DNA from: Dehalococcoidia bacterium
Lineage (GTDB): Bacteria > Chloroflexota > Dehalococcoidia > Lucifugimonadales > UBA2985
Length of the DNA: 42,509 nucleotides
NCBI GenBank assembly: GCA_963582505.1
Contig: CAUZSC010000001.1
Coordinates: 1 to 42,509, forward strand
Reading direction: 5' to 3'
Part shown: positions 9,019 through 14,490 of the stretch, piece by piece
Layout of the letters: each line of letters starts with the position of its first letter
Position numbering within the stretch: the first letter of the stretch is position 1
Program-made: the position numbers and the translations under genes
The notes under the pieces: model-generated
Seen by the model: the letters and a program-made list of their open reading frames with translations, nothing else
What the model was told of the DNA's origin: nothing
Database searches by the model: none

Positions 9019-9093
9019 GCGGAAGTGGCTCAGTGGTAGAGCATCTCCTTGCCAAGGAGAAGGTCGTGAGTTCGAATCTCATCTTCCGCTCCA
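9019..9093 (+). tRNA. tRNA-Gly (anticodon GCC); CCA encoded
   Basis: Cloverleaf folded by hand: acceptor GCGGAAG/CTTCCGC, D stem GCTC/GAGC, anticodon stem TCTCC/GGAGA, loop TTGCCAA, T stem GTGAG/CTCAT, T loop TTCGAAT, discriminator T, then CCA at 9091-9093. Confidence 0.9.
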
Positions 9094-9148
9094 ATAATTA
9101 GGCGCAAAATGCCTCTTGATAGACATCAGGGGGTTTGATTTTTGCCAA

Positions 9149-9172
9149 AAGGACACACTAAAGGACACACTA
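9149..9172 (+). repeat. Perfect tandem 12-mer (aaggacacacta x2) at the left end of element A
   Basis: Read directly: 9149-9160 equals 9161-9172. It lies 56 nt downstream of the tRNA-Gly CCA end. Confidence 0.8.
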
Positions 9173-9289
9173 TCAAATGGTTTTGGGTATTAATGGATGA
9201 CCGACTTCCCTTCCCAAGACCTATCCATGGGTTTCACATTAATATTCCCTAAAGGTATTATGGAATATTAATATACTATATTTTGGTAT

Positions 9290-9305
9290 ACCTCAGGGTT
9301 CTAAA
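9290..9305 (+). repeat. Left arm of a 16-bp perfect inverted repeat (acctcagggttctaaa)
   Basis: It is the reverse complement of 10764-10779 (tttagaaccctgaggt). It contains the ACC-N3-(A/G)GGT dyad. Confidence 0.8.
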
Positions 9306-9430
9306 TAGTGTGTTATCAGGAGTATTGGCCCTATTTACAAACAGATATAGTAATTTGGCAAGGTGATTCATGCCTAGTAAACTTTGTGAATGTAACGAAA
9401 ACTCACAGAAGAATTGGATGTTCAGATTAG

Positions 9431-10685
9431 TTGACTTCACAGATTATATATTCAGTGGCAATAATAGTTACCTTAGGTCTACTCGCTGGTAGGACGGTAA
9501 GGTTTATAAGAATGCCCGCCGTTACAGGCTATTTGTTGATTGGCATACTAATCGGTCCATGGATGATTGGTGTTCTGGATTACGATACGGTAGATGTACT
9601 CTCCCATGCGTTTACCAACCCTGTTCTAGGGGTAATTGCGTATATGATTGGGGGGAATGCTTCATTGCAGAACCTTATCGGTTTAAAGAAGGCGATATTA
9701 TATATATCAATCGCTGAGGCTGGCTTGGCATTCATGATTACCCTATTACTGATCACCTATATTGCGCCAATCTTAATGCCCGAATTATCTCTTGATTTTC
9801 GCAGTTGGTTAGTAATGGGTATCGTTATAGGTTCTATTTGTATGGCTACAGCGCCTGCGGTCTCGATGGCTATAGTAGATGAACTAAAGGTGGTCGGATC
9901 ACTCCCCACAGTACTACTAGGGGTTATAGCACTAGACAATTTATATGCGATTATAGGTTTTTCAATTTCCACATGGATAGCAATTATTATAATAGAAGGA
10001 TCCGTTTCTACGGACGCAATTGGAGTAGTTCTGGAACAACTATTTTCCATATTGGGATCAGTACTTTTGGGCGTTGTTTTGGCATATTTCATGTCGTTTG
10101 TGGGTCAGATAAGTTCGCGAAAGCACCAGAGGTTGTTCTTGGTTATGGGTATTATTCTGGCAAGCTCTCAGGTCGCATTAACAATTGGATTATTCCCTAT
10201 ATTGGTTAACTTAGTATTGGGCTTCACTATTGTTAACCTGCAGACAGACGATGCAGATTACATAGGAGTTATCAAACCTATACAAGAACCAATGTTTGCC
10301 TTGTTCTTTAGCTTAGCCGGAGCCCATATGAATTTAGATATGCTAGGATCTGCTGGCTTTCTTACAATGTTAATAGTATTAGGCAGGGATGGTGGTAAGG
10401 TTATTGGCAGTTGGTTAGGTGCGGTATCAGCCGATACTACCGTACCAAATCAGAAAGTACCTTGGGTTTGCACTTATGCCGAAGGCAGGAGTAACTATAG
10501 GGCTTACTATGTTGATAACTGAAATCTCTCAGCTAGATCCTATAAGCAACATAGCCGTCACCGCTATCCTCGCCTCAACGCTTATTAATGAATTGTCTGC
10601 TCCTCCAATATCCAGATTCGTATTGGCAAGGGGTGCTTATACTCGCTATCAGGAGAATATTATCAAGAATAATCATATATTCTGA
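9431..10685 (+). pseudogene. Cation:proton antiporter (Na+/H+ exchanger family) disrupted by one frameshift
   Basis: Two overlapping ORFs, 9431-10522 and 10419-10685, together encode one roughly 415-aa polytopic protein. The conserved C-terminal segment RKYLGFALMPKAGVTIGL is in the second frame. The shift lies between about 10436 and 10460, with no homopolymer there. Confidence 0.7.
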
Positions 10686-12524: not shown

Positions 12525-12656
12525 TAAGGAAGTATATCCAAAGTAGTATCGCTGCTAATAATCAGCGATATATAAAGACACGGCTGTTGGGGGAGGGTAA
12601 TACAGCTTTGTGAAGCAACATACCCTGTGCCCAGTTTATAATAGGTTAAGGGTTTC

Positions 12657-13454
12657 TTGAGGGACATAGGAAATGAAACTGAAGGGGAAAAAGTGTCTAC
12701 GTTAGACTTAGGTGCAATCCATAAACTCTTACTCAAACACGCCGTTCCTGATGACTTGATCGTGGTTAGGTTGAGTTCGAGGGCAAAGCGCCTGATCTTC
12801 AAGTCATCAGTCAGAAAAGGGGTAGAGATAGTGATCCCGCACGGTGCAGATTCATCGTGGGTCGCAAAGATGACACAGAACAAAATCCCTTGGATTAAGA
12901 GCGCTCAACAACTTGCCAGAGAAGGACGGAGTCAGCTAAATCCGACGCGTATCGATCTGAAAGCACTAGGCGAAATCTGGTCTGTGGATTACGTAAATGT
13001 TGATGAGATACAAAATGGGTTGCTAGTAAGCGGGCAACACACCTTAACGGTCGGTGTAGATCCCAAAGATGTTTTCTGTGTCGCACGGAAATTGCAAGGG
13101 TGGTTCCACCAGAAAGCCAGGACCTCGTTGCTCCCTTGGCTTGCTTCGCTAGCCGAGGACAGAGGATTGAGGTTCAAGAAAACATATGTTAAGAACCAGG
13201 TGAGTCTGTGGGGCAGCTGTTCTACGGAGCGCAACATCAACCTGAATAGGAATCTGCTGTTTCTTCCAAAGTACCTTGTAGAATACGTACTTCACCATGA
13301 ACTCACACATCTTGAACACTTAAATCATTCTGGAAGATTTTGGAGTTCGTTTGCCCATGTCCTTCCAAACTGTAAGGAACTGAGGCTTGAATTGAGAACA
13401 AGAAACCTGGGAAACATCCCATTGTGGGCATCTCCTGGGCTCAATGATGTCTGA
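12657..13454 (+). CDS. DUF45/YgjP-like (COG1451) zinc metallohydrolase
   Basis: It has the HELTHLEHLNHSGRFW (HExxH...H) motif and an upstream WGSC segment typical of the family. The start is uncertain: TTG 12657 in the track, or GTG 12693 preceded by GGGG at 5-nt spacing. Confidence 0.72.
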   Translation: MRDIGNETEGEKVSTLDLGAIHKLLLKHAVPDDLIVVRLSSRAKRLIFKSSVRKGVEIVIPHGADSSWVAKMTQNKIPWIKSAQQLAREGRSQLNPTRIDLKALGEIWSVDYVNVDEIQNGLLVSGQHTLTVGVDPKDVFCVARKLQGWFHQKARTSLLPWLASLAEDRGLRFKKTYVKNQVSLWGSCSTERNINLNRNLLFLPKYLVEYVLHHELTHLEHLNHSGRFWSSFAHVLPNCKELRLELRTRNLGNIPLWASPGLNDV

Positions 13455-13477
13455 CACCACAAAGAGGAGATCTAAAT

Positions 13478-14302
13478 ATGAAAGTTCTATACCATGCTGG
13501 ATGTGATGACGGATTCGGAGCTGCTTATGCTATTTGGCTCAAATATGGGTACCAAGCAAAATATATTCCAGTCCAGTATGGACAGGCTTTTCCGGAGGTC
13601 TCATCTGGTGAGACTGTTTATGTGGTCGACTTTTCGTATTCACGAGATATTCTCCAGAGCATTGCCGATCGGTGCAAACTCGTTGTACTAGACCATCATA
13701 AAACTGCAATGGATGACTTGGCAGATTTACCATTCGCACATTTTGACATGAATAAATCTGGTGCTGTATTGGCATGGGAATATTTTCATCCGAATGAACC
13801 AATACCCACGTTATTGACATACGTGCAAGACTACGATCTTTGGACTAAAGAACTCCCTCATACAGAGGAGAATAAAGCATGGAGGGGGTCATTCCCCAGG
13901 ACATTCGATCGCTGGAAAGAAATGGATCTGATTGTGTCTCGTGATCACATATGGAAGACCGAAGGGGAAGCGATATTGCGCTCTGAAAAATTGCACATTC
14001 AACACCGGGTGTCACAGGCATTTGAAGTAACAATTGATACCCACGTAGTGCTTGCAGTAAATGAGACTCAATATTTTAGCGAGGTAGCCGGTGAACTTGC
14101 CAAGGACACCAGATATCCTTTCGGAGCATGCTTTTTTATACGCGGTGATGGTCTTAAGATATGGAGCTTACGATCGGATCGGAATTTAGGAGATTTCGAT
14201 GTGAGTGCAGTAGCCAAGTTAAGAGGTGGTGGTGGACACAGGAACGCAGCCGGTTTCAAGGAATCAGCCGAGCATCCAATATTACTGTCTGCGCAAAATT
14301 GA
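13478..14302 (+). CDS. Stand-alone DHH/DHHA1 phosphoesterase (NrnB/COG2404-like)
   Basis: 274 aa. Motifs: YHAGCDDGFGAA (motif I), VVDFS, VVLDHHKT (DHH) and LRGGGGHRNAAGF (DHHA1). A GAGGAG RBS sits 7 nt before the ATG. Confidence 0.72.
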   Translation: MKVLYHAGCDDGFGAAYAIWLKYGYQAKYIPVQYGQAFPEVSSGETVYVVDFSYSRDILQSIADRCKLVVLDHHKTAMDDLADLPFAHFDMNKSGAVLAWEYFHPNEPIPTLLTYVQDYDLWTKELPHTEENKAWRGSFPRTFDRWKEMDLIVSRDHIWKTEGEAILRSEKLHIQHRVSQAFEVTIDTHVVLAVNETQYFSEVAGELAKDTRYPFGACFFIRGDGLKIWSLRSDRNLGDFDVSAVAKLRGGGGHRNAAGFKESAEHPILLSAQN

Positions 14303-14429
14303 TGTGTGAAAGCGGGTGTAGTGTTTTTTACATAATGTGAGGAAGCAGTAGAGCGATAAATCCTATATCATGCCTATATCCACTACATTTGGTATATGCG
14401 GGCACAGCGTGAAACAGAAAAACATATCA

Positions 14430-14490
14430 TTTCCAAGGAGAGGGTCGTGGGTTCGAATCCCATCTTCCGCTACAATAATTTAGGCATGCA
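14430..14490 (+). repeat. Displaced tRNA-Gly 3' half (outermost att-like copy)
   Basis: 14430-14474 aligns to 9049-9093 with 5 substitutions. Two of them (14450, 14460) convert a T-stem A-T pair to G-C. The flank caataatttaggcatgcaataat is related to caataattaggcgcaaaat. Confidence 0.8.

Follow-up and report, generated by a model that had tools for sequence, protein, structure and literature searches.

We analysed a stretch of 42,509 nucleotides (nt) from a Dehalococcoidia bacterium (contig CAUZSC010000001.1, positions 1 to 42,509; the whole stretch is called the window in the following) and were interested in the region downstream of its tRNA-Gly(GCC) gene, where the 3' half of this tRNA is repeated several times. 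Judging from the flanking genes and their best matches, the DNA comes from a marine bacterium of the SAR202 type (Dehalococcoidia). The region between the tRNA and a gene for an EamA-family transporter is probably a fixed and decayed tandem array, built up in two or perhaps three rounds of site-specific integration of related elements at the anticodon loop of tRNA-Gly(GCC), and it is best called an integrative-element remnant array. Two islands can be distinguished, island B (9094-11138) with one gene of the Na+/H+ exchanger family and island A (about 11458-14429) with three genes coding for a LicD-family protein, a YgjP-like protein and a DHH phosphoesterase; a small unit of ~0.2 kb (11201-11375) may lie between them. 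The original prediction for this region had been serial integration into the tRNA gene by elements that are either still cis-mobilisable or fossil. Its first part is supported by the structure described below, and for the second part the fossil variant found better support than the cis-mobilisable one.

Copies of the tRNA-Gly 3' half and their flanks

The repeated block begins with the first base of the anticodon loop TTGCCAA and ends 17 nt past the encoded CCA (9049-9110, copy 1). Copies 2 and 3 follow in the same direct orientation, each beginning at the identical anticodon-loop base, with the intact tRNA and a directly repeated tRNA 3' part as island boundaries. A 32-nt probe with up to 3 mismatches led to three sites in the window, namely copies 1-3, and to no match in 100 shuffles; coordinates and substitution counts given earlier for copy 2 (3/62) and copy 3 (5/45) turned out to be exact. 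The substitutions in copy 2 correspond to 9064 (T>G), 9087 (C>A) and 9102 (G>A; copy-1 numbering throughout), the one at 9087 disrupting the acceptor stem. In copy 3, 45 tRNA-derived nt (14430-14474) precede a trailer resembling that of copy 1, and differences were found at 9061 (A>G), 9069 (A>G) and 9079 (T>C), in the anticodon (GCC>TCC) and in the CCA end (CCA>ACA). Substitutions in the anticodon-loop core cast doubt on whether copy 3 would still function as an attachment (att) site. The changes at 9079 and 9069 affect the paired T-stem positions 62 and 52 and are compensatory (A52-U62 to G52-C62), the copy-3-type T stem being GTGGG/CCCAT with the trailer AATAATTTAGGCATG. As the chance that two of five random changes strike and preserve one pair is ~2% by a rough estimate, this compensatory pair suggests that the halves derive from different functional tRNA-Gly alleles and not from in-place decay alone. 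Neither copy 2 nor copy 3 was called tRNA-like by ARAGORN or Rfam, and both are devoid of a 5' acceptor partner. The Rfam scan of 8700-14800 returned only the two tRNAs as known RNA families, and the sole match to the tmRNA model was a partial one of 11 bits to the T-arm of copy 3.

Tandem integration leads to an asymmetric prediction for the flanks: the left flanks of copies 2 and 3 should be alike and unlike the tRNA 5' half, and the right flanks of copies 1 and 2 should be alike, with a different right flank for copy 3, which is chromosome. The 47 nt to the left of copies 2 and 3 are identical in register at 31 of 47 positions (background from 20,000 random 47-mer pairs of the window: mean 12.2, sd 3.0, max 24) and are unlike the tRNA 5' half. 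Within them, the motif G[AG]AACAG[AG]AAAACA[CT]ATCATT (P-arm motif GRAACAGRAAAACAYATCATT) occurs at 11120-11140 and 14411-14431 and nowhere else in the window, confirming the 5' motif already noted for these two copies. For the right flanks a global alignment with free end gaps resulted in a trivial alignment. The best local alignment of the right flanks of copies 1 and 2 is the 16-nt motif ACC[AG]ACTTCCCTTCCC (ACCRACTTCCCTTCCC), with a score reached in 8 of 2000 shuffles; in the window the motif was detected only at 9200-9215 and 11278-11293, and the right flank of copy 3 is without it. Remaining flank pairs were at background level. A homology of about 150 nt 3' of copies 1 and 2, which had been part of the original prediction, was overstated, as right-flank similarity is limited to the 16-nt motif and T-runs, and the match of tttttgcc to tttttggc reflects the T-run of terminator-like hairpins. 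The presumed related elements share arm sequences that differ from the chromosome, and the pattern of the flanks fits the asymmetric prediction for tandem integration.

The live tRNA trailer is directly followed by an intrinsic terminator (9111-9144), and copy 2 by a weaker hairpin with a T-run. Short repeats of the att-arm type gather at the junctions, comprising a 12-nt tandem repeat, a 15-nt direct repeat and a palindrome cluster (Table 1). The 12-nt repeat AAGGACACACTA is a candidate arm-type binding site, and its copy number varies in the population, with two copies in the window and one in contig L031. Four conspecific contigs (L003, L027, L028 and L029) end exactly at 9160; an explanation of these breaks as excision junctions was rejected because they coincide with the copy-number variation of the 12-nt repeat, a variant that could pass for an island boundary. 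All four exact ACCTnnAGGT matches of the window sit in the cluster at 10746-11013, a region that folds better than its shuffles (z -3.0) and for which no open reading frame, Pfam remnant or Rfam match was detected. The cluster may represent a protein-binding array. A site at 9247-9256 was also noted alongside the palindrome and inverted-repeat sites.

A fourth tRNA-half copy is possible at 11376-11457 (copy 2b). It is collinear with the other copies, showing a P-arm-like motif, a T-loop-like AGTTCGAGTCT and the trailer TAGGCATAAAATAAG in this order, and its scores were reached in 21, 117 and 52 of 3000 shuffles (p ~0.007-0.04). The heavily decayed fourth copy proposed before was thus overstated, its statistics being marginal. 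If copy 2b is real, 11201-11375 would be an element shrunk to its two ends.

From the geometry, with a 7-nt loop within the anticodon stem and a partial stem-like symmetry kept in the P arms, we infer a tyrosine-type recombinase and a crossover in the anticodon loop. The attP site of the incoming element would have consisted of a left (P) arm, the 7-nt crossover represented by the anticodon loop TTGCCAA and a right (P') arm, and it would also have held the element's own tRNA 3' half, a trailer of ~17 nt and a terminator. Upon recombination of attP with the intact tRNA gene by a tyrosine-type integrase, the 3' half of the element would restore a working tRNA (now 9049-9093, then the terminator 9111-9144), and the prior 3' half would be displaced to the far end of the element with the element's P arm before it. 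The 5' part of the present tRNA-Gly (9019-9048) would hence be chromosomal and its 3' part (9049-9093) would stem from the last-integrated element, the junction at copy 2 would combine attR of island B with attL of the next unit, and copy 3 would be the original chromosomal 3' half. In this order of events island A (about 11458-14429) would have integrated first, leaving the original half as copy 3, the unit now reduced to ~0.2 kb (11201-11375) may have come second, and island B (9094-11138) would have come last. Integrase and excisionase modules would have been deleted later, or the islands would be the cargo-bearing remains of larger elements, and the cargo would then have become a stable part of the chromosome.

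Table 1. Positions of the tRNA genes, repeat copies, arm sequences and genes of the array in the window, and of the DHH gene copies on other contigs
Feature	Position	Strand	Remarks
tRNA-Phe(GAA)	8906-8979	+	ARAGORN, Rfam; upstream partner of tRNA-Gly
tRNA-Gly(GCC), intact; attL-like junction	9019-9093	+	ARAGORN; Rfam tRNA 74.6 bits
Repeat copy 1, anticodon loop to CCA plus 17-nt trailer	9049-9110	+	trailer AATAATTAGGCGCAAAAT
Intrinsic terminator, element side of junction	9111-9144	+	10-bp stem and T-run; dG -19.1 kcal/mol, z -2.9
12-nt tandem repeat, left (P') end of island B	9149-9172	+	two copies of AAGGACACACTA
P'-arm motif	9200-9215	+	ACCGACTTCCCTTCCC; 107 nt past CCA of copy 1
16-nt perfect inverted repeat, left arm	9290-9305	+	ACCTCAGGGTTCTAAA; right arm 10764-10779; brackets exchanger gene
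Na+/H+ exchanger family transporter	9455-10685	+	Pfam PF00999; island B
ACCTnnAGGT palindrome cluster	10746-11013		n=8; noncoding right end of island B; includes right arm of inverted repeat
15-nt perfect direct repeat, first copy	11020-11034	+	AGTCCTACAGTTTGT; ~105 nt upstream of copy 2; candidate arm-type site
Right-end (P-arm) sequence, island B	11092-11138	+	31/47 vs right end of island A; contains GGAACAGGAAAACACATCATT
Repeat copy 2, displaced tRNA-Gly 3' half and trailer	11139-11200	+	3/62 substitutions vs copy 1
15-nt perfect direct repeat, second copy	11240-11254	+	AGTCCTACAGTTTGT; 57 nt past CCA of copy 2
P'-arm motif	11278-11293	+	ACCAACTTCCCTTCCC; 95 nt past CCA of copy 2
Possible decayed copy 2b	11376-11457 (about)	+	P-arm-like GAAACAACAGAACACTACGTT, T-loop-like AGTTCGAGTCT, trailer TAGGCATAAAATAAG
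LicD-family protein	11562-12524	+	Pfam PF04991; island A, cargo 1
YgjP-like (DUF45) metallopeptidase-domain protein	12657-13454	+	Pfam PF01863; island A, cargo 2
DHH/DHHA1 phosphoesterase	13478-14302	+	Pfam; phrog_4771 E 1e-72; island A, cargo 3
Right-end (P-arm) sequence, island A	14383-14429	+	contains GAAACAGAAAAACATATCATT
Repeat copy 3, outermost displaced 3' half	14430-14491	+	5/45 substitutions; trailer AATAATTTAGGCATGCAA
EamA-family transporter, first gene of chromosomal right flank	14544-15449	-	Pfam
DHH gene copies compared	L049 3748-4587; L050 5700-6525; L089 1462-2274; L107 10001-10804; L110 1393-2205

Recombinase search and population invariance

Pfam analysis covered the window open reading frames of about 86 amino acids and longer and two antisense reading frames inside the islands. 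In these substantial reading frames of the 42.5-kb window no integrase, recombinase, transposase, excisionase or relaxase domain was detected, and the reading frames of the islands gave only Na_H_Exchanger, LicD, YgjP-like and DHH/DHHA1. The spacers, translated at 10686-11140 in all six frames and at 11184-11561 in four of six, contained no Pfam remnant, no integrase remnant and no small excisionase-like reading frame. An integrase of either type (Phage_integrase or serine recombinase) was found neither inside nor beside an island, and the absence of a recombinase stated in the original prediction holds over the reading frames and spacer frames searched.

Look-ups by exact protein yielded ~20 different contigs of the species, which came from at least 11 samples and from datasets of several oceans (JGI 33000xxxxx and ENA ERZ272476xx samples among them). 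Some conspecific contigs reach 162-438 kb, for example ena:ERZ27247676 k141_1029110 and one of 437,843 bp. Every conspecific contig that reaches the region shows the same occupied arrangement with 99.4-100% identity to the window, six contigs extending from FolC over the complete array to EamA. Neither an empty site nor a singly occupied variant nor an excision junction had been assembled, and a difference in occupancy, by which serial integration might have been seen directly, was accordingly not found within the species.

Contigs of this species often end at 8932-8935, inside tRNA-Phe, and both available contigs of the sister species with the closest FolC relatives (66-67%; L042, 1-57; L106; samples ERZ23495459 and SRR28395889) likewise terminate inside this gene. 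Such ends are probably due to tRNA sequence common to co-occurring genomes, and they systematically conceal the tRNA-Gly locus in short-read assemblies. FolC-anchored loci of 13 GTDB genomes (<=55% amino acid identity) had no tRNA-Gly(GCC) nearby; a relative with 59% identity in FolC is not syntenic upstream, and more distant genomes are not syntenic either. None of the EamA relatives (67%) adjoins a tRNA-Gly fragment. The island DNA gave no match in phage or plasmid records. A single DNA-pattern scan of a metagenome collection also gave 0 matches, a weak result since this collection evidently lacks the species.

Several observations weigh against serial integration as the origin of the array. 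An empty or singly occupied site was not observed, the nearest relatives being distant (FolC <=67% at the amino acid level), and six DNA-pattern scans of viral contigs with attR, attL, tRNA-half and P-arm patterns, one of them too strict at its first base, resulted in 0 matches. Among 111 loci compared, the arm motifs were confined to conspecific ones, and no integrase-bearing relative of an island was detected in the viral and metagenome scans or in these loci. On the P' side the likeness is 16 nt plus T-runs and no more, and copy 2b is statistically marginal, being outscored by unrelated genomic windows. The GC content of the cargo (0.411-0.465) is barely unlike that of the host (0.409 for the window). 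Finally, 3.8 kb separate the DHH gene of contig L107 from a YHYH homologue (71%), so that an ancestral DHH-YHYH neighbourhood is conceivable.

That the islands are still mobile appears unlikely. They would then be att-flanked cassettes similar to cis-mobilisable elements (CIMEs), served by a tRNA-Gly integrase from elsewhere in the genome, from an incoming element or from a phage. P arm, core and trailer are indeed well kept at copies 2 and 3, the junction at copy 2 is structurally a hybrid attP with the perfect 15-nt repeat on either side, the cargo looks intact and co-oriented, and integrase-less Dehalococcoides ssrA islands have been proposed to behave in this way (PMC3146451). However, the invariant occupied arrangement in samples of several oceans, an alternative junction that was never assembled and the lack of an integrase within 42.5 kb argue against it, as do the broken acceptor stem of copy 2 and the anticodon change (G>T) of copy 3, which falls where the crossover is presumed and would impair the exchange of strands. 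With only the occupied state in at least 11 samples and with neither an excision junction nor an integrase-bearing relative, the present-day cis-mobilisation considered in the original prediction did not gain support.

An origin without any integration is improbable. The partial copies would be relics of local duplication or illegitimate recombination (tRNA pseudogenes), or tRNA-like elements for 3' processing or stability, which would agree with their position at the 3' end of co-oriented gene blocks, with the host-like GC content of the islands and with the failure to find a recombinase or a polymorphism. But duplication leaves unexplained why every copy starts at the same anticodon-loop base, and likewise the left-hand likeness of copies 2 and 3 and the right-hand motif of copies 1 and 2. 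Furthermore, copies 2 and 3, undetected by ARAGORN and Rfam and without a 5' acceptor partner, do not look like tRNA-like elements, and the compensatory difference in the T stem points to functional origins independent of each other.

Cargo genes of the islands

The four cargo genes all run in the direction of the tRNA. In the window the exchanger gene is frameshifted by one extra A in an A-run at 10447-10449, which is missing from 9/9 other conspecific contigs compared; the gene was called intact with 409 amino acids in, for example, L002, L026, L029, L031 and L032 and with 390 amino acids in others. The frameshift marks a strain-specific pseudogene unless it stems from an error of sequencing or assembly. 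Single-nucleotide polymorphisms of the 6-kb region in the population are concentrated in this gene (9912-10219).

The products of island A have relatives in other surroundings. A LicD relative with 78% identity in L081 is situated among ordinary aminotransferase and NTP-transferase genes, and around the LicD and YgjP relatives of this contig ordinary metabolic genes and no integrase were found. For YgjP, 46 related metagenome loci (38-92% identity in the part that matched) also showed ordinary metabolic surroundings, and neither these loci nor the LicD relative had a tRNA-Gly fragment, an arm motif or an integrase nearby. The DHH protein strongly matches the phage protein family phrog_4771 (E 1e-72), and relatives with 84-92% identity were detected in at least four other genomic contexts, namely YchF-DHH-Tex, Band_7-DHH-Lactamase_B, DHH-x-YgjP and GMC oxidoreductase-DHH-EamA. 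At the nucleotide level the gene alone (window 13465-14304) is 84-89% identical to copies in unrelated contexts. For the YchF-DHH-Tex copy, located in a genome with a GC content of 0.57, an identity of 88.7% does not extend beyond the gene and its ribosome-binding site, beginning 13 nt before the start codon and stopping at the stop codon; this copy forms a low-GC patch adjoining an IS3-family transposase. Flanking tRNA halves or arm motifs were not found at the DHH copies elsewhere, and relatives in eight viral contigs had no LicD or YgjP neighbours. As relatives with 84-92% identity occur elsewhere while FolC has nothing closer than 67%, the DHH gene has probably been exchanged horizontally, and the pattern looks like single-gene exchange among SAR202 lineages in a family that is also phage-borne. 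The cargo as a whole looks horizontally mobile or relocated. The combination of LicD-YgjP-DHH and exchanger at tRNA-Gly is peculiar to this species among the sampled data. A role of the cargo as a defence system was considered and rejected, as PADLOC gave no match.

The single-gene spread of DHH, the attP-like junction at copy 2 and the arrays of arm repeats and palindromes are compatible with a live capture platform, for which we nevertheless see a small chance only. Att-flanked cassettes of 1-3 genes, exchanged among SAR202 genomes or phages, would be stacked at the anticodon loop by a recombinase acting in trans. With each cassette a tRNA half and a terminator would arrive, which would amount to an integron-like or tycheposon-satellite system lacking a resident integrase. 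Extremely unlikely is a tRNA-anchored integron-like platform with promoter-proximal cassettes of 1-3 genes, sites of ~110 nt made up of P arm, tRNA half and trailer, and a dedicated recombinase encoded elsewhere that shuffles the cassettes: small units of 0.2-3 kb, all in one orientation and without a recombinase, alternate with similar junction sites, and at least one cargo gene (DHH) moves singly between genomes with sharp boundaries, but no IntI-like or other recombinase is adjacent, there are two or three units only, a strong terminator stands behind the tRNA, the DHH copies elsewhere are without tRNA halves or arm motifs and the array is invariant in the population.

Other parts of the window also showed unusual gene arrangements. 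Two adjacent co-oriented reading frames of 275 and 281 amino acids (38515-39342 and 39417-40262) show matches to acyl-CoA dehydrogenase in its N-terminal and middle domains only, with the C-terminal domain missing, and are tandem paralogues that are truncated or unusual. A protein of 838 amino acids (34537-37053) has two full matches to CoA-transferase family III, apparently a tandem fusion, and is encoded among genes for MFS transporters, aldehyde:ferredoxin oxidoreductase and MMPL proteins, which are typical of SAR202. Two EamA-family paralogues (14544-15449 and 20751-21659) are ~59% identical and 5 kb apart; three MFS transporters and AzlCD lie between and around them, and this transporter-rich region abuts the island array.

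Relation to known integrative elements

The architecture of an integrative-element remnant array as proposed here is already known from streptococcal accretion and CIMEs, from Dehalococcoides ssrA islands and from Prochlorococcus tycheposon islands, and it does not point to a new mechanism. Tandem accretion and CIMEs have been described for streptococci, among them Streptococcus thermophilus, at sites of the ICESt1/ICESt3 type (Pavlovic et al., 2004, cited after PMC5704250 and PMC3146451). Direct repeats of the target-gene 3' end bound adjacent units there too, integration and transfer genes were lost with attL/attR-like ends being kept, and the array grows through repeated site-specific integration. 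At the sequence level attL and attR are likewise retained in the array described here, and integration and transfer genes are gone. However, CIME status needs a demonstrated or inferable mobilisation with a related integrative and conjugative (ICE) or mobilisable (IME) element; no ICE/IME, relaxase, oriT or integrase was present in the array or detectable in relatives, and no related ICE/IME or integrase turned up in the window, in the 111 loci or in the viral and metagenome pattern scans. In contrast to the streptococcal systems, the host is a free-living marine Chloroflexota, and the target is the anticodon loop of a tRNA-Gly.

The ssrA islands of Dehalococcoides, 15 of which have no integration module and for which a CIME-like or fixed state was suggested (McMurdie et al., 2011, PMC3146451), belong to the same class Dehalococcoidia. 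They are tandem islands downstream of a small structured-RNA gene as well, the 3' end of which is directly repeated at the boundary of each island, with a conserved non-target motif just upstream of each repeat. They differ in their tmRNA target, a 20-bp repeat, an insertion in the T-loop, and the CcrB-like serine recombinase DsiB in a six-gene module (PMC3146451), whereas the array described here uses tRNA-Gly with a 62-nt repeat from the anticodon loop, has a geometry typical of tyrosine recombinases and kept no module. An ssrA site, the 20-bp repeat and DsiB/DsiA are all missing, and no serine recombinase was found.

Prochlorococcus tycheposons can also be adjacent to each other and are then separated by partial tRNAs (Hackl et al., bioRxiv 10.1101/2020.12.28.424599). 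Both systems share an oligotrophic marine host, islands adjoining a tRNA gene, older integrations as degenerate remnants with scattered partial tRNAs, and frequent transport and metabolic cargo; full and partial tRNA flanks and a partial tRNA between tandem units were found here as well. But tycheposons carry by definition a tRNA-specific tyrosine (rarely serine) recombinase and a replication module (primase, helicase or polymerase), neither of which was found, and their islands are population-variable, whereas the islands described here are invariant and no active relative was found. An assignment to integrons would call for intI, attI and attC cassettes; the junctions are tRNA halves instead, and no integrase was found. 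Williams is said to have termed the anticodon-loop crossover of tRNA-linked islands and prophages 'sublocation I' in 2002, and such sublocations are cited in PMC3146451. Classical islands of this kind resemble the array in an identity block that starts at the anticodon loop and ends at or just past the tRNA 3' end, and in that the element restores the gene and the displaced half marks the distal boundary. They normally carry an integrase beside one att site, which is absent here. As the defining recombinase and replication modules were not found when tested, the array cannot be assigned to any of the compared families; it works in the same way as they do.

If the proposed origin of the integrative-element remnant array is true, it would illustrate, cleanly and on a small scale, how SAR202, an abundant but uncultured deep-ocean lineage, gains accessory genes, namely through site-specific insertions that recur at a single tRNA gene, the mobility genes being lost afterwards. 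With its foreign 3' half and terminator, the live tRNA would be a chimera, and the pattern of streptococci, Dehalococcoides and Prochlorococcus would extend to another marine group. The tRNA-Gly(GCC) gene would thereby be flagged as a site at which to seek active elements in SAR202 genomes.

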